From NCBI RefSeq assembly GCF_964204645.1, contig NC_134025.1, positions 15,659,001-15,723,000 of the forward strand: DNA of 64,000 bases, read 5' to 3'. This DNA comes from Tubulanus polymorphus (taxonomy: Eukaryota; Animalia; Nemertea). The notes under the pieces were generated by a model. That model was not told where the DNA came from. It did not search any database and worked only from the letters and a program-made list of their open reading frames with translations. A program made the position numbers and the translations under genes. Shown piece by piece: positions 19,260 to 64,000 of this stretch (its first letter is position 1; each line of letters opens with the position of its first letter).

Positions 19260-19289
19260 AATATTAATTATATTTAACACAAATAATAA

Positions 19290-19760: not shown

Positions 19761-19765
19761 TCATG

Positions 19766-23405: not shown

Positions 23406-23480
23406 CAATATTAAAACAGATATATACAATCGGGATTACATTTTTGATATCTATATTACAAAGACCTTCAGTGTTATAAT

Positions 23481-27479: not shown

Positions 27480-27561
27480 GATATCAACTCCTTTTCAAAA
27501 TAGAGGTGATCGACCATCAAATACAGCCACTACGGTAGCCATCTTGAATTTGTCAGCACAA

Positions 27562-36791: not shown

Positions 36792-37283
36792 CTACAAAAT
36801 ACTTGAGTAAGGCCCTGGCGAGAGAACGTGTCCGTGCACAAATCCGAATGAATAAATTGAAATACCGGAAATATCATTACTTAAGTAAATTATGTCGGCG
36901 CCTGGCAACAAGAGAGCCTTTTTAGCATAATCGATAACTGCCTGGTTTCGTTCCAGGAAATCAACTCCGAGAATGAAGTCCGAGGTGACTCCATCCACCA
37001 CGTACATAGAATGTGACACGTCCAAATTTCCTAATACAAAATCTACGGAAATAACACCTTTTAAATAAAACTTAGTACCATCTACCCCACGGGCGGACTG
37101 AAATTGTCCCTCCTGCAAAGGGCCATTCGATATCTGAGGATGATTGATTAAGTAATTGTTTGACAGTACAGAAATTTCGGCACCCGTATCAATCAAAATG
37201 TTTAACGGTGTCCCTGAATGACTACCAGTCACTCGGTTGGCGGCAGTTGCCATGATTGACGGGGGAATAAGCCTCCGTTCCAA
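36792..37283 (-). pseudogene. Retropepsin (aspartic protease), truncated into the LTR
   Basis: LIDTGAEISVL catalytic motif and DFILGVDFL. Confidence 0.9.
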
Positions 37284-38340: not shown

Positions 38341-38342
38341 CC

Positions 38343-39410: not shown

Positions 39411-39479
39411 TGTATATCTTTATACGAATACTAATCTAAAATAACATTTTAAAATTTTCCAACCCAAAAAACAGATGTA

Positions 39480-41600: not shown

Positions 41601-44285
41601 ATTGACCAGGCGATCCCTCAAGACTATCATAAACGTATCTAATAGGCTATAGATTAACAGCCAATGCATCGTACAAGCGGGGCCAAATCTTCATAACCAA
41701 ATGCATAGAGAAAAAAGGACCGCCCGGCCAACCCCAAGCCAACATGACAAGCCATGTAAACGGGCAGCTAAGAGACCCGCGACTAGAGAGCTGACAGGAA
41801 CCCCAAATACTTAATATATCAAACTACATAATTGGTTGCATAATACAAGACAGGATGCAAAAGAAATCATTTCATCCAATCACCTTTCCCATCTACCTTA
41901 AAATTCTGTAACACAATAAACAAACTGTTCGACGTCTCTTAAATAACTTCACTGGCTATCCTAAAACTCTTGTTTACATGACGGTGGTTCTGAACTCAAT
42001 GAAATTAACCGTTCCAATAATGATCTTTTAGAATAATACATCGCAAGATGAAACCCACTATTAAAATCAAAAGCAGACAGCACTACCTAAGTTAGATCAG
42101 CTAAAATAAGACTTAGCCACACTCGCTACGCACCTGGAATAATACTATAAAAAGATATAATATACTTTCTGCATATAGACGAAAGGATTATGCCGGCTGA
42201 AAACAACGAGGGTGAAAGGTTGGGGACTCGCCAGAGGGTTCGAACATGGCCAAAAACATACAAACATACACCAACGCTCTCATAGAAAGTTTAGCAACAG
42301 TATTTTCCTAAAACTATTACTGTTACATTATATCTCCATATGACGTAGATGATCAGCACTTCACGATCTGTCAGTAACACACAAACTCTTCTTCCGTTAC
42401 GAATATTTAGCTTTATTTCGATCAGCAAGCAAATATAATTTTCGGCTAGCGGGCTTATCCCTGTCACGAAAATGTCGATGCGTAAAAGGGCTCAATGAGC
42501 CCTTTAACGCATCGACATTTTCGTTTTTCCGATAGAGGGAATATTTGATACGAAAACGTCTTTTCTCGCGCTGAACGACGTTTTCGCGTCGGAAAGTGCT
42601 TTTCCTGGCGATTTGAGCGCTTTTACCCATCGACATTGTCGTTTTTCCGATAGGGGGAATATTTGATACGAAAACGTCTTTTCTCGCGCTGAACGACGTT
42701 TTCGCGTCGGAAAGTGCTTTTCCTGGCGATTTGAGCGCTTTTACCCATCGACATTGTCGTTTTTCCGATAGGGGGAATATTTGATACGAAAACGTCTTTT
42801 CTCGCGCTGAACGACGTTTACGGGTCGAAAAGTGCTTTTCCTGACGATTTGAGCGCTTTTACCCATCGACATTGTCGTTTTTCCGATAGTGGGAATATTT
42901 GATACGAAAACTTCTTTTCTTGCGCTGAACGACGTTTTCGCGTCGAAAAGTGCTTTTCCTGACGATTTGAGCGCATTTACGTATCGACATTGTCGTTTTT
43001 CCGATAGGGGGAATATTTGATACGAAAACGTCTTTTCTCGCGCTGAACGACGTTTTCGCGTCGGAAAGTGCTTTTCCTGGCGATTTGAGCGCTTTTACGC
43101 ATCGACATTGTCGTTTTTCCGATAGGGGGAATATTTGATAGGAAAACGTCCTTCTCTCGCGCTGAACGACGTTTACGGGTTGAAAAGTGCTTTTCCTGAC
43201 GATTTGAGCGCTTTTACCCATCGACATTGTCGTTTTTCCGATAGGGGGAATATTTGATACGAAAACGTCTTTTCTCGCGCTGAACGACGTTTACGGGTCG
43301 AAAAGTGCTTTTCCTGACGATTTGAGCGCTTTTACGCATCGACATTGTCGTTTTTCCGATAGGGGGAATATTTGATACGAAAACGTCTTTTCTCGCGCTG
43401 AACGACGTTTTCGCATCGAAAAGTGCTTTTCCTGACGATTTGAGCGCTTTTACGCATCGACATTGTCGTTTTTCCGATAGGGGGAATATTTGAAACGAAA
43501 ACGTCTTTTCTCGCGCTCAACGACGTTTTCGCGTCGAAAAGTGCTTTTCCTGACGATTTGAGCCCTTTTACGCATCGACATTGTCGTTTTTCCGATAGGG
43601 GGAATATTTGATACGAAAACGTCTTTTCTCGCGCTCAACGACGTTTTCGCGTCGAAAAGTGCTTTTCCTGACGATTTGAGCCCTTTTACGCATCGACATT
43701 TTCGTTTTTCCGATAGAGGGAATATTTGATACGAAAACGACTTTTCTCGCGCTGAACGACGTTTTCGCGTCGAAAAGTGCTTTTCCTGACGATTTGAGCG
43801 CTTTTACGCATCGTCGTTTTTCCGATAGGTTGAATATTTGATACGAAAAACGTCTTTACTCGCGCAGAACGACGTTTTCGCGTCGAAAAGTGCTTTTCCT
43901 GACGATTTGAGCGCTTTTGCGCATCGACATTTTCGTTTTTCCGATAGAGGGAATATTTGATACGGAAACGACTTTTCTCGCGCTGAACGACGTTTTCGCG
44001 TCGAAAAGTGCTTTTCCTGACGATTTTAGCGCTTTTACGCATCGTCGTTTTCCGATAGTATAATATCCACACTGATGGGTGGTTTCTCGTTCCGCGTTTA
44101 TGTATTGATTGGGGATAAAAAACGAAACCCGGAACAAGTAGCCACATACGCTGGGTTTTTTTTTAAATATCTTAACCCATCCTGTATTTCATTGGCCCAT
44201 TCCCTCCACTGTACAAGGCACACCTGTCACACTCGACTCCCCATCTTCCGCAAACTAAGAAGTGACCGCGTCACTAGTGTCACAT

Positions 44286-44319
44286 GATCAGTGTGGATAG
44301 TATAATATCCACACTGATC
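44286..44319. promoter_or_regulatory. Putative recombination (circle-junction) site, 13-8-13 inverted repeat
   Basis: GATCAGTGTGGAT-AGTATAAT-ATCCACACTGATC at the B1/A2 junction. Confidence 0.75.
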
Positions 44320-44599
44320 GGTGGTTTCTCGTTCCGCGGTTATGTAGTGATTGGGGATAAAAAACGACCCAACCCCTTACTGATAACCACAACAAATACT
44401 AAAAACCTTTCCACAACTACACCCAAACCCCAACTATACTAGGCCGAGTGAAACGAGGCCAAAAATCAGAAGACAGAATATGCATCCGAAGTCGATTTAT
44501 TTAGACCCGCCTTAGAAATCGGGTATATTAATATACAAAATTCGTATTAGCGTCTAGTTTCTTATCGATATAAATTGGCGTACGTAGAACCTACATGGA

Positions 44600-45914
44600 T
44601 TAAAACATTGGTTTAAACCCGCTTGTAGCATTATTCAGGCGATATGATTCTACACTTTTATCAGTTAACTGTCCCATAGCTTGACCGAGAGAGTCAGAGA
44701 CTTTACCCTGCATCACACAAGCATGTTTGGTGTAATGCTTTGCCATGGACTGATGCTTCCAACCAATATAAGAAGTCACCTCTTTAGATGTATGGCCCAA
44801 AGAAGCCAACATAACGGAGCATCCAACCCTGAAACTATGCGGGGTCTCACCGTCATACATACAAATTTCTTTTAGGTAAGTTTTCAAACGGCTTCCCACC
44901 GCATTCGAGTCGAGTCCGTTATTAACGATAGCGCCCTCTTTATTCATTATCCGGAATAAGTAACCCCCTCCAAGGTCAACTCCAAGCGCCTTTACAACAG
45001 CAAAATACCTTTCAATCGCCAAAACCGGGCACAGAACCGGGTTGTTAAAACGAGTAACTACGGATGTCAAAACCGAACCATCCCGCAGTGTTTTCCCGAA
45101 CGTTAGATTTAAAATGATTACCCTTCCATCGTCACTCTGAGAGATCCCATCTGTCAAAACCCGACCTAAGTCTGCCGCCCTATGTCCTGTTAGAAAATCA
45201 AGTTTGAAGAAAGCCTGGTCCCTTGCTAAAATATACTCCGTTACCGCGGGTAAATCTGGGACAGCCAAGCGTTTATCAATACAGAGAATCATTGCCGTCA
45301 ATTTGCTAAGGTACATTGGGACGGCTTGTTTAGGGGTGATCATGGCCACCGATTGCTCTCAGGTATTGTTTTACCTCTTCTGATATGGTAGGATTCCCAG
45401 TTCCGCGCTCGGGATGCCAACAGCCAATTTTACCAATCGAGTTAAATATTGCCCTTATCTGACCCAGATAGGAATCAACCGTTCCGGCTGCCAGTCTTTT
45501 GGGGCATAAACAACCACCGGTCCTTGGTGAGGCCTTCGAGACTGCTTTCCAACCTCGTACCGGACAGGTTAAAGAGTGTACTACTGTTTTACCCCGAGCA
45601 TCCCTGAATACCATGAACCTACAGATATCCCTAGGTGATGCCGTCAACAAGGATCTCGATGGGCGCAGTGACCTGAGGAACAAGACCAAATCTTCTTCCA
45701 GTTTTGACTTCTTTCGGCCATAAACAGAGTTGCGCTCACTCTCTGACATAGAATTTAACCGGGCATCCAAATCTTTTAATGGTAAGGCTAGCAATGTACC
45801 GTTCTCGCCATCCGTATTGCTTAACTCTGAACCACAATTGTAGCAGAAATTTGAGTGCTGTCGCGAGCGATGTCCACAGTCCGCACAATGGTTCTCGTGA
45901 TGCAGAGACAGATC
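44600..45914 (-). pseudogene. Zinc ribbon + ALOG domain + tyrosine recombinase; frameshift near 45350
   Basis: CADC..FCYNCG; ALOG-like SP.DI.RF..FRD..GKT.VH...C...C.CPKRLAAGTVDSYLGQIRAIF...GNP; catalytic GHRAADL, GKT, HSFR, IGW, HY. Confidence 0.88.
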
Positions 45915-46101
45915 CTGTAAAATATGACAGATCTTAAAAGAACCATAATAAACGAGGTATATCAGAAAAGACAAAACGTTTATTAACGTAAAAGCAGAGT
46001 TATGCATCCGGATTTTACCGTGCATAGATCAGAGTAGAAAATAAAGACCACCGTTACGCAACACCATGTTATCGCTCAGGAAAACATGTCAATTTAATCT
46101 T

Positions 46102-48282
46102 TCAATCTAATCTATCAAGATCTATCCTATAAACAAACAGATCCCACGGTATGCCTACTGTATCCTCCACAAAACCTTTTTTAGTCGGATATTGCAAAAC
46201 ACCCACATCTCCCTTTTTGCCAAGCAGGCGACGTTTGGATGCACGAGAGGTTACCAAAGGCCACCAGAATGGCCTCGGAAAGATTTCTGGAATGACGATA
46301 GATGCTTCTTTGACTGCGTCTGCCAAGAATCGTAAAACCGCCGGTATCTTAGAAATTGGCGGAAACACATATGGATTAACCTCGTCGCATAGATTTTGTG
46401 CGAACAGATCTACACCACTAGAATCAGTAGATGGCGTTGGCGTAAAATGTCGTAGTGGAGAGCCTGACAAATCTACCATTACGTTCGAATCAAGGGCCAT
46501 CAAATCAACCGAGTGTCCGTTTTCACCCCCATATTCACGTTGCACGAGCTGCCATATACGCGGAGATAACATACATTCCGATTTTCGCAAAATTCGCGAG
46601 GGAGCGTCTGCTAGATTCTCTTTTGACGGTACATAATGCAATTTCAACAACACATTTTGTTCTGCTGTTAGTTCAAACAAAAGCTTAATTGCTTCTGACA
46701 GATCATGTGATTTGGAACCTTCATCAACCCATGCCGCAATCATAGTTTTATTATCTACAAAAGCGTCTACTCTACTGTCTCTAATTTTATCAGAAACCAC
46801 CATTAAAACGTTTTTAAGTGCCAGGGTTTCCTTTATTACAATGGGTTTTTGTACCAGCTCCTGTGGCCAATAATCGGAGGGCTCAAACCTCTGCTCACCA
46901 ATCGTGACTATCCCACCCCATCTATAAGAGGATGCGTCCGTATACATCTGAATTCTGACATGCCACTCTTGGCGCCACCTTACCACCCTTGGCAAACATT
47001 CAATTATCTTCCAGTACTCTATCTCAGTTCTGAGATTGCCCTCAACCCTAATGAGTCTCGAGTTTCTGAATGCCTTAGAAATAGCTAAGTTTGACTCCCT
47101 TGTATAAAGCTTCGCAGCTGGTACAACCAACGAGAAGGATATGATCTTACCCACAAACCGCTGAATCGTTTTAATGTTAACGAATTCGGACGATAAAATA
47201 TTGTCCCTTAAAATGGCAAATTTTACCACCTTATCATTTGGGATCTCAAAACGTTCCTCTATAGTGTTAACAAATAAGCCTAAATGCTTTAATAACTGAC
47301 ACGGTTCCAGGACGCATTTATGGAGGCCTAGAAAATACCCTAGTCTTGTTAAAACTTGGGCCGTCATATATAGAGCTAACCTAGCCTTTGTGATGGATTC
47401 TAAACCCCTAGCCGAGGAACTTAAAAGCTCCCCATTTAAACGGTCATCAATGTATTGAGTTATCTGTACTCCTAGGTCTCGAAGGTAACCCGTTGCAACC
47501 AAGCCAGTTTTCTGGTATATATAGGCCGAGGCCTTAAAACCAAAAGGAATAACGGTGTAAACGTAATACCAACCTTTCCAGCTGATTCCCAAATACACCT
47601 CACTTCCCGGTGTTACCCTGATGTGGTCGTAACCACTTTTATCATCGACAGAGGTCATAAACGCGCTTTTATGTAGCATGCGAGGTACGTTTACCAAAGT
47701 TTCCAAATGGAAAGGCGAGTCCCGAATCCATAGATTTAGAAATCGTTCGTCGTGGCACATTCTGGGTTTCGTGGGTTCAACCGTCAAGGGCATAACTAAA
47801 TGCGGGGGTGGATCGACCCCAACCTTTCCCCAGACCTTGAGTGATCCATTAGCCACCCGACCTTTTAATGTTGTAGAAATGAAATCTTCAAATTGTTCGC
47901 AGTTTCCAGAATTCGGGAACACCGTTTTTGGGGGCGCATCCCAATCATACGTCTTGCCTTTAAACTGACCCTTAAACCTCTTAAAGAAATCTGGGATATG
48001 AACACCATCTCGCACCCAAGATAATATCGTGTCTGACAACGGATCCTCTGACTGCCGTAGAATAAATTCCCATTCCTCCAGATGGCGACTCAGTTCACCT
48101 GCGACGAAATTCTCCGGGTCCCTGAGGGGCAGGTCAAAAATTGTCAAATTGTTATACTTGTCCGCCGATTTCGAAACGGTCTCGGCTGAGACGACCTCAG
48201 GCAACGGTAACTGGACGGATGAACCTCTAGCACCAACCCAAAACACGTCTTTACACACAGGTATCTTCAACGGAACAAAATC
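46102..48282 (-). CDS. pol: RT + RNase H + DNA adenine methyltransferase-like domain
   Basis: DDKSGYDH, PFG...S, QYIDD, HLG (RT); YTDAS..RWGG, ETLA, VDN, NLADAPSR (RH); VDLMA...DLFAQN...YVFPP (DIRS MT domain). Open for 727 codons after a splice acceptor. Confidence 0.93.
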   Translation of the reverse strand, partial: DFVPLKIPVCKDVFWVGARGSSVQLPLPEVVSAETVSKSADKYNNLTIFDLPLRDPENFVAGELSRHLEEWEFILRQSEDPLSDTILSWVRDGVHIPDFFKRFKGQFKGKTYDWDAPPKTVFPNSGNCEQFEDFISTTLKGRVANGSLKVWGKVGVDPPPHLVMPLTVEPTKPRMCHDERFLNLWIRDSPFHLETLVNVPRMLHKSAFMTSVDDKSGYDHIRVTPGSEVYLGISWKGWYYVYTVIPFGFKASAYIYQKTGLVATGYLRDLGVQITQYIDDRLNGELLSSSARGLESITKARLALYMTAQVLTRLGYFLGLHKCVLEPCQLLKHLGLFVNTIEERFEIPNDKVVKFAILRDNILSSEFVNIKTIQRFVGKIISFSLVVPAAKLYTRESNLAISKAFRNSRLIRVEGNLRTEIEYWKIIECLPRVVRWRQEWHVRIQMYTDASSYRWGGIVTIGEQRFEPSDYWPQELVQKPIVIKETLALKNVLMVVSDKIRDSRVDAFVDNKTMIAAWVDEGSKSHDLSEAIKLLFELTAEQNVLLKLHYVPSKENLADAPSRILRKSECMLSPRIWQLVQREYGGENGHSVDLMALDSNVMVDLSGSPLRHFTPTPSTDSSGVDLFAQNLCDEVNPYVFPPISKIPAVLRFLADAVKEASIVIPEIFPRPFWWPLVTSRASKRRLLGKKGDVGVLQYPTKKGFVEDTVGIPWDLFVYRIDLDRLD

Positions 48283-48528
48283 CTGAAAAGACACTAAGGT
48301 CCATCAGTCCAGCCCCGTTGCCAGCACGACATAAGCCGTGACAACAGACTTAGATAGCCTGTGACAACAAAGCCAACCGACCACAAACAACCGATAACAA
48401 AATGAATTATCCAACATATGATCAATTTAATGGAGAGAAAATAACCTTGTTTAACATCTTTAACAACACAATATAACGTTACGTATCATCCAAAACTAAA
48501 TTCAATCTAACTCTAAGTTCTAACTCAT

Positions 48529-49069
48529 TTAGACAACCTCACTTTCAGTCTTCGTTACCACTTGTGGTTGCTTATTCTCAGGACAGTCGCGAACAAAATG
48601 ACCCTTTGCGGCATAAGAAACAATTCCCCCTGGAACTTCTCCCTGCTCTCCTTGTACCGTAACCTCGGCGCCCAACATATCCCCTGCCTACACCCGACCC
48701 ACCCCAATAGCCGTAAGTTGGGTAATAATTGTTTGTGTGCGGCTTTTTAGCCCATTTTGCCTCCACTGATGCCACTTTTTCATCATCCGGGGAGCCAATC
48801 AAACGCCTACACAAAGCAGGTAAGTCTGGAGAATCGATATTTCTCTTGATACTTTTCAGCACAGAATCAAAATACCCTTTTTTCGGATCTGTGGTTTCAG
48901 CTTCCACCTCTACCAAGCCTTCCATACAACCGAGAAGGAAGTATGGATCAAAGAAAGAGCCCGGCCTTTGAAGCGCTGCCCTCACCTGCATCAGAGCGCT
49001 CTCTACTGAACGAGCTGGATGTGTAACCTTCTTCTCGAGTTCCTCCAGACGCTTTAACAATTTTTTGTC
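48529..49069 (-). CDS. Gag-like exon with RG-rich segment and a frameshift-damaged CCHC knuckle
   Basis: Acceptor tttcag|GAC at 49070; GGSGVGRGYVGRRG; CFLCRK then GHFVRDC in a shifted frame. Confidence 0.65.
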
Positions 49070-49543
49070 CTGAAACACACGAGATAAATACAAATATAGA
49101 CTAATCAGCATGACTTCGCAGTAAATAGTTTAAAAGATCGCCATGATTTCGGTTGACGAACAATCTATAGTCAATCTATCATCCTAAATGTTTCATGCTT
49201 CTCCTTCATACCATTACCTACATCTTAATGGGTTATCTTTACATTCCATCTTGCGTCTTACATTTTCAGAAGCTGTCTTTTAAAAAACCTAATCTCTATA
49301 AACTTTCTCCTCCAGTAAAGGAAACGAAAAATCCTCTAACTTAACCAAAACAGATCCCCATTCTGTACCCACTAAATCCTGGTATGTGCAAGGCCCAGAG
49401 CAATAAACCTTAAACGCACAGAGCTACACATGTTTTAAACAAATGTCTATTAATTTCCCAATAAATCTACCCAGTCCAGGCCTACCGACCAAACCCGGGG
49501 GCTACAAATACAGATATAAAACTGAGAAAATAAAAACACTCAC

Positions 49544-49936
49544 CGGTTCAGAAACCCCATCTGGGGTTACCGCATCACTCTCCGCACCGACCGTGCTTGT
49601 ACTAGGTGCGGGCACAGACTTCCTTTTCTTTGGTACCTGAGGGAGCTTGTTCGCGTTCTCGTTAGCAAAAATTATCAAGTGGTGCGCTAGCAGCGGACCT
49701 TCCGTCTCCTCCCAGTCCACCAGCGTTAACAGATCATTCATCTTTTTACCAGTCAGAGAAAATACCGCATCATTTACATACTTCCTCGGTGCCGCTTCTA
49801 GTGGCTTAAGCCTTTCGAACCTAGCGAAGGCTGTAGGCCGATCTACGTTCAAATCTAACCCTCTTAATTTCAATAACATGGGGATGATGTCCACCGTTTT
49901 CAAACCGTCTGACGATTTTAAAACCACCGGTTCCAT
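49544..49936 (-). CDS. Leader coding exon (131 aa) of the YR element
   Basis: Acceptor tttcag at 49939, ATG at 49936, ends CCG|GTGAGT donor in phase 0; contains PKKRK (NLS-like). Confidence 0.6.
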
Positions 49937-50629
49937 CTCTGAAACAGATAAGCGAAAAGAACATCAAAATTACTACCGCCTCGTACCAGGAATAAAATTT
50001 AAAAGTATTAGCAAACTGATCCTAACAACCGTCGACAAAGTTTAACCAAATATATACATGTGACCAGACCAGAAAAACGTTAAATTTTCGGCCACATGCC
50101 GTAATTTTTTCCCTAGCCACCATCTTAAATTAAACAAGAACTAATACGACAGTAATACACTAATAAAAACTCACCTTAACTCATCTGTACGATAGACAGT
50201 CAAACAAGTCTAATAATACCACCGAGCTCCAAAACTGTCCTCAAATCTGAAAAGCGATTTGACTAACAGGACTTGATGCTAACCCAACACTACCGCTAAC
50301 TACAAAACGAGACCAAGGACCAGGTAAAACGTCACCAGATTGCCTTTACACGCCCAGTAAGATTAAACCGAATTTTGAAAAGCCAATGAAATCCCACAAA
50401 AGAATTCCAAATCCAGACCTTGGAAATGCGCCTATGAATGAAATAAATCTAGCAAAATGCACGCACTGTGACTTACAGTATTTACCCACGTCCCAATAAA
50501 GGCAAAAGCAATCACGCATGTAGCACTGTAACCTAAATGTCATTGACGGTCAAAATGTACCAAAGTACCCTAGTACTTCTAACCTGACCGAGAATTTTGC
50601 CTCAATAAAATCACTATCAATCCATCTCC

Positions 50630-50970
50630 CGTGCTTCATCCAAAATACTGCACTTATCCCAGAAAATCTAAAAGACCATCTGCCCGTGCTTTAAACCCAA
50701 AATCACGGTACAGTATAACCCAAAACATCAAAATCAGTGTTTCATCCGAAATGACTGCACCAAAATTAACAAACCTAGTGCTTCATCCTAAATGACTGCA
50801 CTAAAACTAACAAAACCAGTGTTTCATCCGAAATGACTGCACCAAAAATAAATAAAAACCAGTGTTTCATCCGAAATGACTACACTAAAATCAATAAACT
50901 CCAGTGTTTCATTCAAAATGACTGCACTAAAACTAATAAACCCAGTGTTTCATCCAAGATGACTACACCA
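50630..50970. repeat. ~41-bp tandem repeat in the 5' leader of the YR element
   Basis: CAGTGTTTCATCCGAAATGACTGCACYAAAA... repeated about six times at 50735-50970, with degenerate copies upstream. Confidence 0.85.
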
Positions 50971-53900
50971 AAGTCTCCAAACCAGGCAAAAGGGGACCAA
51001 AACTAAAGAGGAAACCACAAACAAAGTTCCAAAGAAAAATACAAAATGCTACCGGAAAGGAACCACAGAAAATCGGCAAACGCAGGAGACAAAACTCACC
51101 ACAAAACAGCTGACCACACACGTCCGATAGCTTCGAAAGCAAACTAAGAAGTGACCGCGTCACTAGTGTCACATGATCAGTGTGGATAGGTTGAATATTT
51201 GATACGAAAAACGTCTTTACTCGCGCTGAACGACGTTTTCGCGTCGGAAAGTGCTTTTCCTGGCGATTTGAGCGCTTTTACCCATCGACATTGTCGTTTT
51301 TCCGATAGTGGGAATATTTGATACGAAAACTTCTTTTCTCGCGCTGAACGACGTTTTCGCGTCGAAAAGTGCTTTTCCTGACGATTTGAGCGCTTTTACG
51401 CATCGACATTGTCGTTTTTTCCGATAGGGGGAATATTTGATACGAAAACGTCTTTTCTCGCGCTGAACGACGTTTTCACGTCGGAAAGTGCTTTTCCTGG
51501 CGATTTGAGCGCTTTTACCCATCGACATTGTCGTTTTTCCGATAGGGGGAATATTTGATACGAAAACGTCTTTTCTCGCGCTGAACGAGGTTTTCGCGTC
51601 GGAAAGTGCTTTTCCTGGCGATTTGAGCGCTTTTACCCATCGACATTGTCGTTTTTCCGATAGGGGGAATATTTGACACGAAAACGTCTTTTCTCGCGCT
51701 GAACGACGTTTACGGGTCGAAAAGTGCTTTTCCTGACGATTTGAGCGCTTTTACGCATCGACATTTTCGTTTTTCCGATAGGGGGAATATTTGATACGAA
51801 AACGTCTTTTCTAGCACTAAACGACGTTTTCGGGTCGAAACGTGAGCCCTTTTACGCATCGGCATTTTCGTTTTTCCGATAGAGGGAATATTTGATACGA
51901 AAACGTCTTTTCTCGCGCTGAACGACGTTTTCGCGTCGAAAAGTGCTTTTCCTGACGATTTGAGCGCTTTTACGCATCGACATTGTCGTTTTTCCGATAG
52001 GGGGAATATTTGATACGAAAACGTCTTTTCTCGCGCTGAACGACGTTTTCGCGTCGAAAAGTGCTTTTCCTGACGATTTGAGCGCTTTTACGCATCGACA
52101 TTGTCGTTTTTCCGATAAGGGGAATATTCGATACGAAAACGTCTTTTCTCGCGCTGAACGAGGTTTTCGGGTCGAAAAGTGCTTTTCCGAAAGATTTGAG
52201 CCCTTTTACGCATCGACATTTTCGTTTTTCCGATAGAGGGAATATTTGATACGAAAACGACTTTTCTCGCGCTGAACGAGGTTTTCGCGTCGAAAAGTGC
52301 TTTTCCGAAAGATTTGAGCCCTTCTACGCATCGACATTTTCCTTTTTTCCGATAGGGGGAATATTTGATACGAGAACGTCTTTTCTCGCTCTAAACGACG
52401 TTTTCGGGTCGAAAAGTGCTCTTCCTGACGATTTGAGCCCTTTTACGCATCGACAATTTCGCTTTTTCCGATAGAGGGAATATTTGATACGAAAACGTCT
52501 TTTCTCGCGCTGAACGACGTTTTCGCGTCGAAAAGTGCTTTTCCTGACGATTTGAGCGCTTTTACGCATCGACATTGTCGTTTTTCCGATAGGGGGAATA
52601 TTTGATACGAAAACGTCTTTTCTCGCGCTGAACGACGTTTTCGCGTCGAAAAGTGCTTTTCCTGACGATTTGAGCGCTTTTACGCATCGACATTTTCGTT
52701 TTTCCGATAGGGGGAATATTTGATACGAAAACGTCTTTTCTCGCGCTCAACGACGTTTTCGCGTCGAAAAGTGCTTTTCCTGACGATTTGAGCGCTTTTA
52801 CGCATCGACATTGTCGTTTTTCCGATAGGGGGAATATTTGATACGAAAACGTCTTTTCTCGCGCTCAACGACGTTTTCGGGTCGAAAAGTGCTTTTCCTG
52901 ACGATTTGAGCGCTTTTTACGCATCGACATTGTCGTTTTTCCGATAGGGGGAATGTTCGATACGAAAACGTCTTTTCTCGCGCTGAACGAGGTTTTCGGG
53001 TCGAAAAGTGCTTTTCTGAAAGATTTGAGCCCTTTTACGCATCGACATTTTCGTTTTTCCGATAGAGGAAATATTTGATACGAAAACGACTTTTCTCGCG
53101 CTGAACGACGTTTTCGCGTCGAAAAGTGCTTTTCCTGACGATTTGAGCGCTTTTACGCATCGTCGTTTTTCCGATAGGTTGAATATTTGATACGAAAAAC
53201 GTCTTTACTCGCGCAGAACGACGTTTTCGCGTCGAAAAGTGCTTTTCCTGACGATTTGAGCGCTTTTACGCATCGTCGTTTTTCCGATAGGTTGAATATT
53301 TGATACGAAAAACGTCTTTACTCGCGCTGAACGACGTTTTCGCGTCGGAAAGTGCTTTTCCTGGCGATTTGAGCGCTTTTACCCATCGACATTGTCGTTT
53401 TTCCGATAGTGGGAATATTTGATACGAAAACTTCTTTTCTCGCGCTGAACGATGTTTTCGCGTCGAAAAGTGCTTTTCCTGACGATTTGAGCGCTTTTAC
53501 GCATCGACATTGTCGTTTTTTCCGATAGGGGAATATTTGATACGAAAACGTCTTTTCTCGCGCTGAACGACGTTATCGCGTCGGAAAGTGCTTTTCCTGG
53601 CGATTTGAGCGCTTTTACCCATCGACATTGTCGTTTTTCCGATAGGGGGAATATTTGCCACGAAAACGTCTTTTCTCGCGCTGAACGATGTTTTCGCGTC
53701 GAAAAGTGCTATTCCTGACGACTTGAGCGCTTTTACGCATCGACATTTTCGTTTTTCCGATAGGGGGAATATTTGATACGAAAACGTCTTTTCTAGCACT
53801 AAACGACGTTTTCGGGTCGAAACGTGAGCCCTTTTACGCATCGGCATTTTCGTTTTTCCGATAGAGGGAATATTTGATACGAAAACATCTTTTCTCGCGC

Positions 53901-56900
53901 TGAACGACGTTTTCGCGTCGAAAAGTGCTTTTCCTGACGATTTGAGCGCTTTTACGCATCGACAATGTCGTTTTTCCGATAGGGGGAATATTTGATACGA
54001 AAACGTCTTTTCTCGCGCTCAACGACGTTTTCGCGTCGAAAAGTGCTTTTCCTGACGATTTGAGCGCTTTTTACGCATCGACATTGTCGTTTTTCCGATA
54101 GGGGGAATATTCGATACGAAAACGTCTTTTTTCGCGCTGAACGAGGTTTTCGGGTCGAAAAGTGCTTTTCTGAAAGATTTGAGCCCTTTTACGCATCGAC
54201 ATTTTCGTTTTTCCGATAGAGGAAATATTTGATACGAAAACGACTTTTCTCGCGCTGAACGACGTTTTCGCGTCGAAAAGTGCTTTTCCTGACGATTTGA
54301 GCGCTTTTACGCATCGTCGTTTTTCCGATAGGTTGAATATTTGATACGAAAAACGTCTTTACTCGCGCAGAACGACGTTTTCGCGTCGAAAAGTGCTTTT
54401 GCTGACGATTTGAGCGCTTTTGCGCATCGACATTTTCGTTTTTCCGATAGAGGGAATATTTGATACGGAAACGACTTTTCTAGCACTAAACGACGTTTTC
54501 GGGTCGAAACGTGAGCCCTTTTACGCATCGGCATTTTCGTTTTTCCGATAGAGGGAATATTTGATACGAAAACATCTTTTCTCGCGCTGAACGACGTTTT
54601 CGCGTCGAAAAGTGCTTTTCCTGACGATTTGAGCGCTTTTACGCATCGACAATGTCGTTTTTCCGATAGGGGGAATATTTGATACGAAAACGTCTTTTCT
54701 CGCGCTGAACGACGTTTTCGCGTCGAAAAGTGCTTTTCCTGACGATTTGAGCGCTTTTACGCATCGACATTGTCGTTTTTCCGATAGGGGGAATATTTGA
54801 TACGAAAACGTCATTTCTCGCGCTCAATGACATTTTCGCGTCGAAAAGTGCTTTTCCTGACGATTTGAGCGCTTTTACGGATCGACATTGTCGTTTTTCC
54901 GATAAGGGGAATATTCGATACGAAAACGTCTTTTTTTGCTCGCGCTGAACGAGGTTTTCGGGTCGAAAAGTGCTTTTCCGAAAGATTTGAGCCCTTTTAC
55001 GCATCGACATTTTCGTTTTTCCGATAGAGGGAATATTTGCCACGAAAACGACTTTTCTCGCGCTGAACGACGTTTTCGCGTCGAAAAGTGCTTTTCCTGA
55101 CGATGTGAGCGCTTTTACGCATCGACATCGTCGTTTTTCCGATAGGTTGAATATTTGAAACGAAAAACGTCTTTACTCGCGCAGAACGACGTTTTCGCGT
55201 CGAAAAGTGCTTTTCCTGACGATTTGAGCGCTTTTACGCATCGTCGTTTTTCCGATAGGTTGAATATTTGACACGAAAAACGTCTTTACTCGCGCAGAAC
55301 GACGTTTTCGCGTCGAAAAGTGCTTTTGCTGACGATTTGAGCGCTTTTGCGCATCGACATTTTCGTTTTTCCGATAGAGGGAATATTTGATACGGAAACG
55401 ACTTTTCTCGCGCTGAACGACGTTTTCGCGTCGAAAAGTGCTTTTCCTGACGATTTGAGCGCTTTTACGCATCGTCGTTTTTCCGATAGGTTGAATATTT
55501 GATACGAAAAACGTCTTTACTCGCGCTGAACGACGTTTTCGCGTCGGAAAGTGCTTTTCCTGGCGATTTGAGCGCTTTTACCCATCGACATTGTCGTTTT
55601 TCCGATAGTGGGAATATTTGATACGAAAACTTCTTTTCTCGCGCTGAACGACGTTTTCGCGTCGAAAAGTGCTTTTCCTGACGATTTGAGCGCTTTTACG
55701 CATCGACATTGTCGTTTTTTCCGATAGGGGAATATTTGATACGAAAACGTCTTTTCTCGCGCTGAACGACGTTTTCGCGTCGGAAAGTGCTTTTCCTGGC
55801 GATTTGAGCGCTTTTACCCATCGACATTGTCGTTTTTCCGATAGAGGAAATATTTGATACGAAAACGACTTTTCTCGCGCTGAACGACGTTTTCGCGTCG
55901 AAAAGTGCTTTTCCTGACGATTTGAGCGCTTTTACGCATCGTCGTTTTTCCGATAGGTTGAATATTTGATACGAAAAACGTCTTTACTCGCGCAGAACGA
56001 CGTTTTCGCGTCGAAAAGTGCTTTTCCTGACGATTTGAGCGCTTTTACGCATCGTCGTTTTTCCGATAGGTTGAATATTTGATACGAAAAACGTCTTTAC
56101 TCGCGCTGAACGACGTTTTCGCGTCGGAAAGTGCTTTTCCTGGCGATTTGAGCGCTTTTACCCATCGACATTGTCGTTTTTCCGATAGTGGGAATATTTG
56201 ATACGAAAACTTCTTTTCTCGCGCTGAACGATGTTTTCGCGTCGAAAAGTGCTTTTCCTGACGATTTGAGCGCTTTTACGCATCGACATTGTCGTTTTTT
56301 CCGATAGGGGAATATTTGATACGAAAACGTCTTTTCTCGCGCTGAACGACGTTATCGCGTCGGAAAGTGCTTTTCCTGGCGATTTGAGCGCTTTTACCCA
56401 TCGACATTGTCGTTTTTCCGATAGGGGGAATATTTGCCACGAAAACGTCTTTTCTCGCGCTGAACGATGTTTTCGTGTCGAAAAGTGCTATTCCTGACGA
56501 CTTGAGCGCTTTTACGCATCGACATTTTCGTTTTTCCGATAGGGGGAATATTTGATACGAAAACGTCTTTTCTAGCACTAAACGACGTTTTCGGGTCGAA
56601 ACGTGAGCCCTTTTACGCATCGGCATTTTCGTTTTTCCGATAGAGGGAATATTTGATACGAAAACATCTTTTCTCGCGCTGAACGACGTTTTCGCGTCGA
56701 AAAGTGCTTTTCCTGACGATTTGAGCGCTTTTACGCATCGACAATGTCGTTTTTCCGATAGGGGGAATATTTGATACGAAAACGTCTTTTCTCGCGCTGA
56801 ACGACGTTTTCGCGTCGAAAAGTGCTTTTCCTGACGATTTGAGCGCTTTTACGCATCGACATTGTCGTTTTTCCGATAGGGGGAATATTTGATACGAAAA

Positions 56901-59900
56901 CGTCATTTCTCGCGCTCAATGACATTTTCGCGTCGAAAAGTGCTTTTCCTGACGATTTGAGCGCTTTTACGGATCGACATTGTCGTTTTTCCGATAAGGG
57001 GAATATTCGATACGAAAACGTCTTTTTTTGCTCGCGCTGAACGAGGTTTTCGGGTCGAAAAGTGCTTTTCCGAAAGATTTGAGCCCTTTTACGCATCGAC
57101 ATTTTCGTTTTTCCGATAGAGGAAATATTTGCCACGAAAACGACTTTTCTCGCGCTGAACGACGTTTTCGCGTCGAAAAGTGCTTTTCCTGACGATGTGA
57201 GCGCTTTTACGCATCGACATCGTCGTTTTTCCGATAGGTTGAATATTTGAAACGAAAAACGTCTTTACTCGCGCAGAACGACGTTTTCGCGTCGAAAAGT
57301 GCTTTTCCTGACGATTTGAGCGCTTTTACGCATCGAAATTTTCGTTTTTCCGATAGAGGGAATATTTGATACGAAAACGACTTTTCTCGCGCTGAACGAC
57401 GTTTTCGCGTCGAAAAGTGCTTTTCCGAAAGATTTGAGCCCTTCTACGCATCGACATTTTCCTTTTTTCCGATAGGGGGAATATTTGATACGAAAACGTC
57501 TTTTCTCGCGCTGAACGACGTTTTCGAGTCGAAAAGTGCTTTTCCTGACGATTTGAGCGCTTTTACGCATCGACATTGTCGTTTTTCCGATAGGGGGAAT
57601 ATTTGATACGAAAACGTCTTTTCTCGCGCTGAACGACGTTTTCGCGTCGAAAAGTGCTTTTCCTGACGATTTGAGCGCTTTTACGCATCGACATTGTCGT
57701 TTTTCCGATAGGGGGAATATTTGATACGAAAACGTCTTTTCTCGCGCTCAACGACGTTTTCGCGTCGAAAAGTGCTTTTCCTGACGATTTGAGCGCTTTT
57801 TACGCATCGACATTGTCGTTTTTCCGATAGGGGGAATATTCGATACGAAAACGTCTTTTTTCGCGCTGAACGAGGTTTTCGGGTCGAAAAGTGCTTTTCT
57901 GAAAGATTTGAGCCCTTTTACGCATCGACATTTTCGTTTTTCCGATAGAGGAAATATTTGATACGAAAACGACTTTTCTCGCGCTGAACGACGTTTTCGC
58001 GTCGAAAAGTGCTTTTCCTGACGATTTGAGCGCTTTTACGCATCGTCGTTTTTCCGATAGGTTGAATATTTGATACGAAAAACGTCTTTACTCGCGCAGA
58101 ACGACGTTTTCGCGTCGAAAAGTGCTTTTGCTGACGATTTGAGCGCTTTTGCGCATCGACATTTTCGTTTTTCCGATAGAGGGAATATTTGATACGGAAA
58201 CGACTTTTCTCGCGCTGAACGACGTTTTCGCGTCGAAAAGTGCTTTTCCTGACGATTTGAGCGCTTTTACGCATCGTCGTTTTTCCGATAGGTTGAATAT
58301 TTGATACGAAAAACGTCTTTACTCGCGCTGAACGACGTTTTCGCGTCGGAAAGTGCTTTTCCTGGCGATTTGAGCGCTTTTACCCATCGACATTGTCGTT
58401 TTTCCGATAGTGGGAATATTTGATACGAAAACTTCTTTTCTCGCGCTTAACGATGTTTTCGCGTCGAAAAGTGCTTTTCCTGACGATTTGAGCGCTTTTA
58501 CGCATCGACATTGTCGTTTTTTCCGATAGGGGAATATTTGATACGAAAACGTCTTTTCTCGCGCTGAACGACGTTTTCGCGTCGGAAAGTGTTTTTCCTG
58601 GCGATTTGAGCGCTTTTACCCATCGACATTGTCGTTTTTCCGATAGGGGGAATATTTGCCACGAAAACGTCTTTTCTCGCGCTGAACGATGTTTTCGCGT
58701 CGAAAAGTGCTATTCCTGACGACTTGAGCGCTTTTACGCATCGACATTTTCGTTTTTCCGATAGGGGGAATATTTGATACGAAAACGTCTTTTCTAGCAC
58801 TAAACGACGTTTTCGGGTCGAAACGTGAGCCCTTTTACGCATCGGCATTTTCGTTTTTCCGATAGAGGGAATATTTGATACGAAAACGTCTTTTCTCGCG
58901 CTGAACGACGTTTTCGCGTCGAAAAGTGCTTTTCCTGACGATTTGAGCGCTTTTACGCATCGACATTGTCGTTTTTCCGATAGGGGGAATATTTGATACG
59001 AAAACGTCTTTTCTCGCGCTGAACGACGTTTTCGCGTCGAAAAGTGCTTTTCCTGACGATTTGAGCGCTTTTACGCATCGACATTGTCGTTTTTCCGATA
59101 GGGGGAATATTTGATACGAAAACGTCTTTTCTCGCGCTCAATGACGTTTTCGCGTCGAAAAGTGCTTTTCCTGACGATTTGAGCGCTTTTACGGATCGAC
59201 ATTGTCGTTTTTCCGATAAGGGGAATATTCGATACGAAAACGTCTTTTTTTGCTCGCGCTGAACGAGGTTTTCGGGTCGAAAAGTGCTTTTCCGAAAGAT
59301 TTGAGCCCTTTTACGCATCGACATTTTCGTTTTTTCGATAGAGGGAATATTTGACACGAAAACGACTTTTCTCGCGCTGAACGACGTTTTCGCGTCGAAA
59401 AGTGCTTTTGCTGACGATTTGAGCGCTTTTGCGCATCGACATTTTCGTTTTTCCGATAGAGGGAATATTTGATACGGAAACGACTTTTCTCGCGCTGAAC
59501 GACGTTTTCGCGTCGAAAAGTGCTTTTCCTGACGATTTGAGCGCTTTTACGCATCGTCGTTTTTCCGATAGGTTGAATATTTGATACGAAAAACGTCTTT
59601 ACTCGCGCTGAACGACGTTTTCGCGTCGGAAAGTGCTTTTCCTGGCGATTTGAGCGCTTTTACCCATCGACATTGTCGTTTTTCCGATAGTGGGAATATT
59701 TGATACGAAAACTTCTTTTCTCGCGCTGAACGATGTTTTCGCGTCGAAAAGTGCTTTTCCTGACGATTTGAGCGCTTTTACGCATCGACATTGTCGTTTT
59801 TTCCGATAGGGGAATATTTGATACGAAAACGTCTTTTCTCGCGCTGAACGACGTTTTCGCGTGGGAAAGTGCTTTTCCTGGCGATTTGAGCGCTTTTACC

Positions 59901-62900
59901 CATCGACATTGTCGTTTTTCCGATAGGGGGAATATTTGACACGAAAACGTCTTTTCTCGCGCTGAACGATGTTTTCGCGTCGAAAAGTGCTATTCCTGAC
60001 GATTTGAGCGCTTTTACGCATCGACATTTTCGTTTTTCCGATAGGGGGAATATTTGATACGAAAACGTCTTTTCTAGCACTAAACGACGTTTTCGGGTCG
60101 AAACGTGGGCCCTTTTACGCATCGGCATTTTCGTTTTTCCGATAGAGGAAATATTTGATACGAAAACATCTTTTCTCGCGCTGAACGACGTTTTCGCGTC
60201 GAAAAGTGCTTTTCTTGACGATTTGAGCGCTTTTACGCATCGACATTGTCGTTTTTCCGATAGGGGGAATATTTGATACGAAAACGTCTTTTCTCGCGCT
60301 GAACGACGTTTTCGCGTCGAAAAGTGCTTTTCCTGACGATTTGAGCGCTTTTACGCATCGACATTGTCATTTTTCCGATAGGGGGAATATTTGATACGAA
60401 AACGTCTTTTCTCGCGCTCAATGACGTTTTCGCGTCGAAAAGTGCTTTTCCTGACGATTTGAGCGCTTTTACGGATCGACATTGTCGTTTTTCCGATAAG
60501 GGGAATATTCGATACGAAAACGTCTTTTTTTGCTCGCGCTGAACGAGGTTTTCGGGTCGAAAAGTGCTTTTCCGAAAGATTTGAGCCCTTTTACGCATCG
60601 ACATTTTCGTTTTTCCGATAGAGGGAATATTTGACACGAAAACGACTTTTCTCGCGCTGAACGACGTTTTCGCGTCGAAAAGTGCTTTTCCTGACGATGT
60701 GAGCGCTTTTACGCATCGACATCGTCGTTTTTCCGATAGGTTGAATATTTGATACGAAAAACGTCTTTACTCGCGCAGAACGACGTTTTCGCGTCGAAAA
60801 GTGCTTTTCCTGACGATTTGAGTGCTTTTACGCATCGAAATTTTCGTTTTTCCGATAGAGGGAATATTTGATACGAAAACGACTTTTCTCGCGCTGAACG
60901 AGGTTTTCGCGTCGAAAAGTGCTTTTCCGAAAGATTTGAGCCCTTCTACGCATCGACATTTTCCTTTTTTCCGATAGGGGGAATATTTGATACGAAAACG
61001 TCTTTTCTCGCGCTGAACGACGTTTTCGAGTCGAAAAGTGCTTTTCCTGACGATTTGAGCGCTTTTACGCATCTACATTGTCGTTTTTCCGATAGGGGGA
61101 ATATTTGATACGAAAACGTCTTTTCTCGCGCTGAACGACGTTTTCGCGTCGAAAAGTGCTTTTCCTGACGATTTGAGCGCTTTTACGCATCGACATTTTC
61201 GTTTTTCCGTTAGAGGGAATATTTGATACGAAAACGTCTTTTCTCGCGCTGAACGACGTTTTCGCGTCGAAAAGTGCTTTTCCTGACGATTTGAGCGCTT
61301 TTACGCATCGACATTGTCGTTTTTCCGATAGGGGGAATATTTGATACGAAAACGTCTTTTCTCGCGCTGAACGACGTTTTCGCGTCGAAAAGTGCTTTTC
61401 CTGACGATTTGAGCGCTTTTACGCATCGACATTGTCGTTTTTCCGATAGGGGGAATATTTGATACGAAAACGTCTTTTCTCGCGCTGAACGACGTTTTCG
61501 CGTCGAAAAGTGCTTTTCCTGACGATTTGAGCGCTTTTACGCATCGACATTGTCATTTTTCCGATAGGGGGAATATTTGATACGAAAACGTCTTTTCTCG
61601 CGCTCAATGACGTTTTCGCGTCGAAAAGTGCTTTTCCTGACGATTTGAGCGCTTTTACGGATCGACATTGTCGTTTTTCCGATAAGGGGAATATTCGATA
61701 CGAAAACGTCTTTTTTTGCTCGCGCTGAACGAGGTTTTCGGGTCGAAAAGTGCTTTTCCGAAAGATTTGAGCCCTTTTACGCATCGACATTTTCGTTTTT
61801 CCGATAGAGGGAATATTTGACACGAAAACGACTTTTCTCGCGCTGAACGACGTTTTCGCGTCGAAAAGTGCTTTTCCTGACGATGTGAGCGCTTTTACGC
61901 ATCGACATCGTCGTTTTTCCGATAGGTTGAATATTTGATACGAAAAACGTCTTTACTCGCGCAGAACGACGTTTTCGCGTCGAAAAGTGCTTTTCCTGAC
62001 GATTTGAGTGCTTTTACGCATCGAAATTTTCGTTTTTCCGATAGAGGGAATATTTGATACGAAAACGACTTTTCTCGCGCTGAACGAGGTTTTCGCGTCG
62101 AAAAGTGCTTTTCCGAAAGATTTGAGCCCTTCTACGCATCGACATTTTCCTTTTTTCCGATAGGGGGAATATTTGATACGAAAACGTCTTTTCTCGCGCT
62201 GAACGACGTTTTCGAGTCGAAAAGTGCTTTTCCTGACGATTTGAGCGCTTTTACGCATCTACATTGTCGTTTTTCCGATAGGGGGAATATTTGATACGAA
62301 AACGTCTTTTCTCGCGCTGAACGACGTTTTCGCGTCGAAAAGTGCTTTTCCTGACGATTTGAGCGCTTTTACGCATCGACATTTTCGTTTTTCCGTTAGA
62401 GGGAATATTTGATACGAAAACGTCTTTTCTCGCGCTGAACGACGTTTTCGCGTCGAAAAGTGCTTTTCCTGACGATTTGAGCGCTTTTACGCATCGACAT
62501 TGTCGTTTTTCCGATAGGGGGAATATTTGATACGAAAACGTCTTTTCTCGCGCTGAACGACGTTTTCGCGTCGAAAAGTGCTTTTCCTGACGATTTGAGC
62601 GCTTTTACGCATCGACATTGTCGTTTTTCCGATAGGGGGAATATTTGATACGAAAACGTCTTTTCTCGCGCTCAACGACGTTTTCCCTTCGAAAAGTGCT
62701 TTTCCTGACGATTTGAGCGCTTTTTACGCATCGACATTGTCGTTTTTCCGATAGGGGGAATATTCGATACGAAAACATCTTTTCTCGCGCTGAACGAGGT
62801 TTTCGGGTCGAAAAGTGCTTTTCCGAAAGATTTGAGCCCTTTTACGCATCGACATTTTCGTTTTTCCGATAGAGGGAATATTTGATACGAAAACGACTTT

Positions 62901-64000
62901 TCTCCCGCTGAACGACGTTTTCGCGTCGAAAAGTGCTTTTCCTGACGATTCGAGTGCTTTTACGCATCGACATCGTCGTTTTTCCGATAGGTTGAATATT
63001 TGATACGAAAAACGTCTTTACTCGCGCAGAACGACGTTTTCGCGTCGAAAAGTGCTTTTCCTGACGATTTGAGCGCTTTTACGCATCGACATTTTCGTTT
63101 TTCCGATAGAGGGAATATTTGATACGAAAACGTCTTTTCTCGCGCTGAACGACGTTTTCGCGTCGAAAAGTGCTTTTCCTGACGATTTGAGCGCTTTTAC
63201 GCATCGACATTGTCGTTTTTCCGATAGGGGGAATATTTGATACGAAAACGTCTTTTCTCGCGCTGAACGACGTTTTCGCGTCGAAAAGTGCTTTTCCTGA
63301 CGATTTGAGCGCTTTTACGTATCGACATTGTCGTTTTTCCGATAGGGGGAATATTTGATACGAAAACGTCTTTTCTCGCGCTGAACGACGTTTTCGCGTC
63401 GAAAAGTGCTTTTCCTGACGATTTGAGCGCTTTTTACGCATCGACATTTTCGTTTTTCCGATAGGGGGAATATTTGATACGAAAACGTCTTTTCTCGCGC
63501 TGAACGAGGTTTTCGGGTCGAAAAGTGCTTTTCCGAAAGATTTGAGCCCTTTTACGCATCGACATTTTCGTTTTTCCGATAGAGGGAATATTTGATACGA
63601 AAACGACTTTTCTCCCGCTGAACGACGTTTTCGCGTCGAAAAGTGCTTTTCCTGACGATTCGAGTGCTTTTACGCATCGACATCGTCGTTTTTCCGATAG
63701 GTAGAATATCTGATACGAAAAACGTCTTTACTCGCGCAGAACGACGTTTTCGCGTCGAAAAGTGCTTTTCCTGACGATTTGAGCGCTTTTACGCATCGAC
63801 ATTTTCGTTTTTCCGATAGAGGGAATATTTGATACGAAAACGTCTTTTCTCGCGCTGAACGACGTTTTCGCGTCGAAAAGTGCTTTTCCTGACGATTTGA
63901 GCGCTTTTACGCATCGACATTGTCGTTTTTCCGATACAGGGAATATTTGATACGAAAACGTCTTTTCTCGCGCTGAACGACGTTTTCGCGTCGAAAAGTG

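Follow-up and report, generated by a model that had tools for sequence, protein, structure and literature searches.

The closest described relatives of the element analysed here are the ALOG-containing DIRS1-like retroposons, whose metazoan copies are treated as inactive in the accessible portions of the report on them (Iyer and Aravind 2012, PMC3537659), and the PAT elements, particularly the Pat1-like echinoderm form (PMC4157794, PMC6681497), for which the passages available describe neither introns nor a shared leader exon. The element lies on the minus strand at positions 51189-44054 of a 64,000-nt stretch of the genome of the nemertean Tubulanus polymorphus (RefSeq assembly GCF_964204645.1, contig NC_134025.1, positions 15,659,001 to 15,723,000 of the forward strand; the whole stretch is called the window below), where it is embedded in a 118-bp satellite. 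Judged from its sequence, it is a PAT-type, ALOG-bearing tyrosine-recombinase retrotransposon. As in the retroposons of PMC3537659, so far as the same portions describe them, a Gag zinc knuckle, a reverse transcriptase (RT)-RNase H, a putative inactive adenine-methylase-like region and a zinc ribbon, ALOG domain and recombinase are found together with direct repeats and a marine invertebrate host. Unlike that paper, the main text of which, in these portions, contains none of the strings 'splic', 'intron', 'exon' or 'frameshift', the present family shows spliced joints. In addition, while PAT open reading frames (ORFs) often overlap according to the available passages of PMC6681497, non-coding gaps separate the gag, RT and recombinase ORFs of our element, as an initial annotation of this DNA had described.

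The same annotation had proposed that alternative choice of the 3' splice site yields three proteins from this element. We consider it probable that the transcript loses its 5' introns and that a leader exon is spliced onto gag and likely, alternatively, onto RT or recombinase, giving three proteins that share the leader. Leader-to-gag splicing was seen, both in a sequencing run (X4) and in the models of three RefSeq loci. Leader-to-RT splicing is likely, given two gene models in other species and conserved phase-0 acceptors, while conserved acceptors point to leader-to-recombinase splicing, for which neither a joint nor a fused protein was found.

Five sequencing runs (X1-X5), none of them recorded as RNA, were compared with the element. 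X4 contains exact GT-AG joints at 49543-49070 and 50174-49939, which correspond to the leader-to-gag intron and to the second 5' intron, as well as a weaker joint at 51099-50300, the short side of which is only 29 letters long; on the forward strand all three have CT..AC ends. No GT-AG joint was found in X1, X2 or X3, and the contigs of these runs continue across the introns, in line with unspliced RNA being the copied genome. Since X2 and X3 come from the same sample as X4 and lack its joints, we infer that X4 is RNA; X5, whose RNA status is a guess, gave no contig on the element and was not used as evidence. Within the introns, X4 coverage is low or nil, and contig ends in this run fall close to the RT acceptor and to the AATAAA at 45984. 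The contig over RT stops at 45971, a weak hint that the poly(A) signal after RT is used, bearing in mind that contigs cannot show transcript ends or levels. In the RefSeq models, three loci join leader to gag exactly at the predicted residue (SEP/DKK, the slash marking the junction), and a fourth model consists of the leader alone.

Inspection of this copy confirmed the splice signals at 50175/50174, 49939 and 49544 where they had been annotated, and likewise the phase-0 acceptors at 49069, 48282 and 45914. The exon 1 donor reads aag/GTGAGT (donor G at 50174), the following tttcag ends at 49939 and leads through AG into the ATG at 49936, and the leader frame ends in ccg/GTGAGT with its donor at 49543; the acceptors before 49069, 48282 and 45914 are each in phase 0 with this frame. 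The heptamer GGTGAGT occurs three times in the element (0.74 expected), at 51100, 50175 and 49544, and these are exactly the three donors used in X4. The RT exon has a stop seven codons above its acceptor and its first Met at residue 164. This copy is frameshifted twice, near 48603 within the zinc knuckle of gag and near 45355 within the recombinase; both frameshifts are absent from the main contigs of all four runs (X1-X4). The upstream intron at 51099-50300, the split direct repeats and the internal poly(A) signals described below go beyond the initial annotation. A two-codon upstream ORF (50175-50184, minus strand) that stops a single base short of the donor of exon 1 could dampen leader translation.

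Homologous proteins elsewhere also join the leader to downstream domains. Searches returned 467 RT homologs, 120 of them listed, and in NCBI models of the scallop Argopecten (XP_069129670.1) and of Lineus (XP_064641919.1) a leader homolog sits directly on RT with no gag between (leader similarity of 36% over 101 amino acids (aa), E 4e-11, and 28% over 100 aa, E 3e-10, respectively); both are computational gene models, known from their proteins and not from exon structure. Among the 40 other RT homologs that extend at least 15 residues above the acceptor, 14 carry a hydrophobic-FQ/LQ stretch there (control mean 2.3, maximum 7). This pattern, picked after inspecting the sequences, is what a pyrimidine tract followed by CAG reads as in phase 0. 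In P0127, an ORF called on a short assembled contig, leader and gag are contiguous. No leader-bearing protein of 365-2000 aa emerged from a profile search of 7989 candidates. Two of the 9 representative-search matches, P0124 and P0126, were dropped as repeat artefacts without a leader match. In a Branchiostoma IGSF22 model (P0125), immunoglobulin/fibronectin host exons are fused to two leader-plus-gag pieces, a possible case of exon capture or of a mis-joined model.

To place these signals in a broader context, we examined 86 related loci (the best 80 of 342 in metagenomes and all 6 of 6 in genomes), which together with the window form 57 families. In loci that reach the domain start, a simple fixed score ranked the acceptor-like sites in the 200 nt above each domain, and the top-scoring one was selected. 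The selected site was in phase 0 in 27 of 38 RT (p 2e-6), 23 of 28 recombinase (p 2e-7) and 18 of 25 gag families (p 9e-5), compared with about one third in upstream non-coding controls (13/33, 11/27 and 7/24, respectively) and with 49/156, 15/44 and 9/31 in coding-interior controls. The acceptors before RT and recombinase often lie at a fixed offset, which is -24 for many recombinase exons, and an in-frame TAG often serves as the acceptor itself. An in-frame Met before the domain is absent from 19/38 RT, 20/28 recombinase and 14/25 gag families, and the RT stretch ahead of Met164 is conserved across the family. When donors were anchored by homology, a strong phase-0 donor was found to close the leader frame in 4 of 6 loci with a helical leader; one of the remaining two had none and the other is frameshifted. 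In L011, leader and gag are joined without an intron, and the point where they meet corresponds, in phase 0, to the acceptor of the related locus L086. Comparing all loci with one another for clean GT-AG deletions turned up three gaps, none of them at a leader junction. As side observations, the helical leader of one locus (L009:815-1397) is apparently split by a further intron, and a transposase fragment, presumably pogo/CENP-B-like, abuts the RT frame in another (L019:188-950). Six contigs of these animal retrotransposons (L081-L086) lie within bacterial metagenome-assembled genomes, most likely as host contamination.

Several observations weigh against a leader shared by all three proteins. 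X4 is not recorded as RNA and is one run of one study; of the junctions foreseen in the initial annotation, 49544-49069 was recovered in it, while neither 49544-48282 (leader to RT) nor 49544-45914 (leader to recombinase) is among the joints listed, and the RefSeq leader-gag models may have been built on the same data. The X4 contig over the recombinase (44411-45919) leads, from 5 bases above the exon start, into 474 foreign letters ending in CAG instead of into the leader; these may represent a host exon spliced to, and thus trapped by, the recombinase acceptor, or a truncated copy. The leader is found on only 2 of the 120 listed RT homologs, most of which are plain ORF calls, and homolog searches returned no leader-recombinase fused protein, a weak negative. 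The window's own RT acceptor counted as a miss in the phase test, as the scorer chose a phase-1 site over this acceptor, which has an AG 11 bases upstream. The anticipated conservation of splice sites across relatives was borne out for the phase-0 acceptors before gag, RT and recombinase and is less well shown for donors, a blind donor-phase test being flat (9/7/5 by phase in 20 families).

One account of these points, which we regard as unlikely, is that only gag is spliced, the leader being the first half of an intron-containing gag, while translation of RT and recombinase starts at in-frame ATGs in the gaps or within the ORFs, either on the longer RNA or on transcripts from internal promoters. 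Joints were indeed seen solely for gag and the untranslated region (UTR), and an in-frame Met precedes the domain in 19/38 RT, 8/28 recombinase and 11/25 gag families. The annotation's claim that the three ORFs lack starts of their own held cleanly only for RT in this copy: in the gap before each of the other two exons there is an in-frame ATG, 14 codons above the acceptor for gag and 31-37 for recombinase, and even in RT, Met164 precedes the RVT_1 match at 201-324. Several features speak against this account: the phase-0 acceptors, kept before RT and recombinase as well as they are before gag, with their frequent fixed offsets and TAG acceptors, the conserved RT sequence before Met164, and the leader-RT fusion in two gene models. 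Somewhat less probable still is an arrangement in which the acceptors before RT and recombinase are genuine but pair with donors other than that of the leader (the non-coding exons 0 or 1, a hidden mini-exon, a trans-spliced leader or host exons), so that the enzymes would carry no leader domain. The foreign sequence that ends in CAG at the recombinase acceptor would fit this arrangement, as would the blind test, which did not show donor conservation, but that join could equally be a truncated or intronic genomic copy. Moreover, a non-coding partner would place no selection on phase, whereas phase 0 is enriched; the first 163 residues of the RT exon in the window include no Met; and leader-RT models exist in two species. 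We consider it very improbable that a single long polyprotein is produced by serial splicing (leader-gag-RT-recombinase), frameshifting or read-through. Although two automatic gene models (P0048, P0122) join RT to recombinase parts, donors are not conserved where gag and RT end: within the final 60 nt of RT, 3/40 families have a strong donor (3/77 windows in the interior control), and none of 37 families has one in phase 0 within the final 90 nt of gag. The gaps, which range from 102 to 1125 nt between gag and RT and from 22 to 1184 nt between RT and recombinase across families, carry stops and poly(A) signals. Serial splicing into a polyprotein is largely refuted.

If the leader is spliced alternatively onto three exons, as we propose, these would be alternative last exons, because likely internal poly(A) signals follow them. 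AATAAA is found downstream of gag in 15/26 families, where shuffles average 3.7 and seven control hexamers range from 3 to 8; the corresponding figures are 15/23, 2.3 and 1-8 for recombinase and 7/25, 1.7 and 0-3 for RT. All three counts exceed those of all 200 shuffles, and a control region above gag (4/25) is not enriched. After RT, AATAAA or ATTAAA is present in 9 of 9 families with a gap longer than 160 nt versus 1 of 16 with a shorter gap. A caution on this interpretation is that AATAAA is also common on the reverse strand (11/26 gag, 8/23 recombinase and 5/25 RT). Literature look-ups on the poly(A) features of these elements found nothing. In the adenovirus major late unit, which belongs to an unrelated DNA virus, a multi-exon non-coding leader is joined to alternative acceptors with separate poly(A) sites.

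A second candidate regulatory feature is a predicted Y-shaped RNA just above the RT acceptor. The fold in the window has a z-score of -4.51 (0/200 shuffles), with a branch-point-like CTAA in or beside one of its hairpin loops. By a heuristic filter, a compact three-way junction is found above the RT acceptor in 23/37 families, versus 1/25 and 2/28 above the other acceptors, with L021, L028 and L084 resembling other folds. When 19 of the 23 Y-elements were aligned (L013, L021, L028 and L084 omitted), one A was invariant and 17/19 read CTNA, which we liken to the branch-point consensus. RNAalifold applied to 8 Y-elements gave two hairpins in which 3 of 9 pairs show double changes, and a model built from these 8 recovered two held-out loci at E <0.01, both correctly placed. 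Two results argue against a conserved structure: RNAalifold gave no consensus fold for the 19 Y-elements, and the model from 8 failed to find the window's copy. There was no Rfam match for the element or for 11 related loci, and literature look-ups on the Y-element found nothing. It is possible, though in our view rather doubtful, that throughout a branch of these retrotransposons found in nemerteans, molluscs and cnidarians the leader is tagged onto Gag, RT and recombinase as three alternative last exons, each with an acceptor and often its own poly(A) signal, and that a conserved Y-shaped RNA cages the RT branch point and doubles as a packaging or priming signal of the unspliced genome.

What the leader contributes to the proteins appears to differ between branches of the family. 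The leader domain with its PKKRK motif, noted earlier, is modelled by AlphaFold as a compact helical domain (residues 1-97, mean pLDDT 76) followed by a disordered basic tail that holds PKKRK, and basic clusters occur at a comparable position in several helical-type leader homologs. Structure searches with the leader gave weak matches (top Z 3.5, none above 5), several SAP/LEM/Rho-N domains among them; the best HeH-type match, 9i5y_B, is likewise weak (Z 3.3, root-mean-square deviation 2.4 over 42 residues), and Atlas comparison gave scores of 0.79 or less. Two leader types can be distinguished, one helical and one short and Pro/Ala/Val-rich, and they fall on the two sides of one branch in a quick RT tree (SH-aLRT 96, 45 rows) on which leader types were labelled by hand and which has no named reference elements; splice acceptors are found on both sides. 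Because one branch has the short Pro/Ala/Val-rich leader, a co-assembly role of a folded leader cannot be general, which counts against this part of the original proposal, and leader-driven co-assembly into particles is best treated as a hypothesis. Since the leader of that branch is of low complexity, the common function is most simply to supply a start codon; a start codon and, in the helical branch, a basic nuclear-import-like tail would be the surest roles. K/R-rich stretches resembling nuclear localisation signals occur at the start of the RT exon in six loci (L021, L024, L028, L042, L063 and L086), mostly in the branch whose leader has no basic tail. The gag exon, a possible counterpart of the retroviral or long terminal repeat (LTR) retrotransposon capsid (CA), gives a confident helical model for which structure searches returned only generic bundle matches.

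The class assignment and boundaries of the element rest on its domains and repeats. RT-RNase H and a tyrosine recombinase lie on the same strand without a DDE integrase, as in PAT/Pat1-like elements. Pfam matches support the annotated identities of the RT and ALOG-recombinase ORFs, with RVT_1 in the RT exon, Phage_integrase at 45358-44603 and ALOG plus zinc ribbon at 45914-45333; the ALOG_dom match (E 5e-21) and the zinc-ribbon matches are N-terminal to the recombinase catalytic domain. The leader and gag of this copy have no Pfam match. RNase H families were matched on aligned homologs of the RT exon, and a YIDD motif and the recombinase motifs were located in the element. RNase H is followed by about 170 conserved residues with DLMA and YVFPP, which we take to be a methylase (adenine-methylase-like; MT-like) region, and for which there was no Pfam methylase match and no PDB sequence match. 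A gag zinc finger (PF13696 on P0001) and a B1A2 repeat pair located after the recombinase agree with the Pat1-like echinoderm form, whose definitions in the available passages of PMC4157794 the element fits. Inverted terminal repeats of the Dirs1 type are lacking, with only short inverted matches among the A and B ends. The split direct repeats would also fit Ngaro, but the MT-like region after RNase H would not, and the ALOG recombinase points toward the DIRS1/PAT side rather than Ngaro.

The repeats are arranged A1-B1-A2-B2 (A, 51 nt, 100% identical; B, 72 nt, 96%). CTATC is present at both element ends and at the B1/A2 junction, and also in empty satellite sites. The satellite contains 16 uninterrupted instances of the target motif, so the insertion is clean at this 5-base core; the insertion point itself is a variant satellite unit. 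Satellite-specific targeting was considered and rejected, as loose ends at the left end of the element in X1, X2 and X4 are not satellite. The family is multi-copy, with copies about 99% alike, a RefSeq match of 99% identity is a protein of T. polymorphus, and no relative was found in a viral contig collection. A joint at 44702/48169 in X1, at low depth and with ends that are not GT-AG, marks an internally deleted, non-autonomous derivative that lacks 3466 nt of RT and recombinase.

Coordinates of the features of the element and its flanks within the window.
Feature	Position	Strand	Remarks
Split direct repeat A1	51139..51189	-	left end, begins with CTATC core; identical to A2
Non-coding exon 0	51100..51189	-	donor gtg/GTGAGT at 51099; 5' boundary provisional
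5' UTR intron 0, 800 nt	50300..51099	-	holds 41-bp tandem repeat; GT-AG joint in X4, side 29
Non-coding exon 1	50175..50299	-	contains two-codon upstream ORF
5' UTR intron 1, 236 nt	49939..50174	-	GT-AG joint in X4, side 126
Leader coding exon	49544..49938	-	ATG 49936, 131 codons, phase-0 donor
Leader-to-gag intron, 474 nt	49070..49543	-	GT-AG joint in X4, side 194; RefSeq junction SEP/DKK
Gag-like exon	48529..49069	-	helical domain, RG-rich stretch, CCHC knuckle; frameshifted near 48603
Candidate poly(A) signal ATTAAA after gag	48426..48431	-	sequence; family enrichment
Predicted Y-shaped (three-way junction) RNA	48311..48374	-	ends about 30 nt above RT acceptor
RT-RNase H-methyltransferase-like exon, 726 aa	46102..48282	-	phase-0 acceptor at 48283
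Candidate poly(A) signal AATAAA after RT	45979..45984	-	sequence
Zinc ribbon-ALOG-tyrosine recombinase exon	44600..45914	-	phase-0 acceptor at 45915; frameshifted near 45355
Candidate terminal poly(A) signal AATAAA	44496..44501	-	sequence; family enrichment
Split direct repeat B1	44296..44367	-	96% to B2
Split direct repeat A2	44250..44300	-	abuts B1; circle-junction-like, CTATC core
Split direct repeat B2	44054..44125	-	right end, ends with CTATC
118-bp satellite flank	42496..44044 and 51190..64000		large, with higher-order variants

Elsewhere in the window, an AT-rich element at about 7400-25700 has terminal inverted repeats (7710-7813 and 25461-25564, 82%); we take it to be Polinton/Maverick-like, with ORFs that resemble a protein-primed DNA polymerase, capsid, packaging ATPase and integrase. 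On the minus strand there are presumably an LTR-retrotransposon-like gag (CCHC knuckle) plus protease remnant at 36800-39420 and an integrase-core-like ORF of 306 aa at 31372-32292. A family of 170-200-nt inverted repeats resembling miniature inverted-repeat transposable elements occurs at 5570-6460, 27130-27890 and 33240-33410, and there are an (AGTTC)75 microsatellite at 34187-34560 and a 31-bp array at 33589-34051.

The mechanism that we envisage begins with removal of intron 1 and the leader-to-gag intron, as seen in X4 if that run is RNA, and of intron 0, for which the joint is weaker. The leader donor at 49543 would also pair with the acceptors at 48283 and 45915, and the poly(A) signals downstream of gag and recombinase, together with those that follow RT here and in other families with a long gap, would define alternative last exons. 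The choice of acceptor and poly(A) signal would then set the Gag:RT:recombinase ratio, replacing frameshifting, while the Y-shaped RNA with its branch-point-like motif may tune use of the RT acceptor or mark the unspliced RNA. The template would be full-length unspliced RNA; copying it through the A/B split repeats would produce a circle for insertion by the recombinase at the CTATC core.

Parts of this scheme have parallels in other retroelements. In plant Ty1/Copia elements (Oberlin et al. 2017, PMC5580714) and Drosophila copia (PMC2194720), as the passages available describe them, splicing and early termination set the structural-to-catalytic ratio, as proposed here. However, the Pol of these elements is made as a Gag-Pol polyprotein from unspliced RNA, whereas all three proteins of our element would require splicing, the unspliced RNA encoding only the leader. 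Foamy virus, according to the same portions of PMC2194720, also makes RT apart from Gag via its own spliced RNA; it differs in being an integrase-based retrovirus, with no shared coding leader described there. The exons of LAP2alpha and ZNF451-L2a derive from DIRS1-like gag, and the colonising gag was inferred to have carried an acceptor and a polyadenylation signal (Abascal et al. 2015, PMC4495291), which is the layout of our gag exon; unlike the present element, these host exons come from the inverted-repeat Dirs1 group, and homology of LAP2alpha to the element's gag was not found (no Pfam match). We found no report of native spliced expression in DIRS/PAT elements in the open literature, the search having left aside subscription papers and Repbase, which may mention introns. 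Passages of PMC6681497, PMC7192593, PMC9341512, PMC6431247, PMC5753468 and bioRxiv 10.1101/2020.06.13.149070 likewise mention none in the DIRS order. A shared leader exon that would give three proteins from one transcript is apparently new for this class of element, and the poly(A) signals after gag, RT and recombinase and the Y-shaped RNA are new here.

How elements of the DIRS order express RT and recombinase from separate or overlapping ORFs lacks an explanation in the papers surveyed, and this family offers a concrete answer. If it is correct, the genome RNA of this retroelement would have to be spliced before any of the enzymes could be made from it. The family also illustrates how automatic ORF calls cut such proteins short. 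For PAT elements, the Y-shaped RNA offers a first candidate cis-acting signal, be it in packaging, priming or splicing. Finally, their acceptors and poly(A) signals would make such elements exon donors, matching the inference made for LAP2alpha, and on the more doubtful branch-wide reading these ready-made exons would explain the repeated host capture of DIRS-order gag and ALOG domains.

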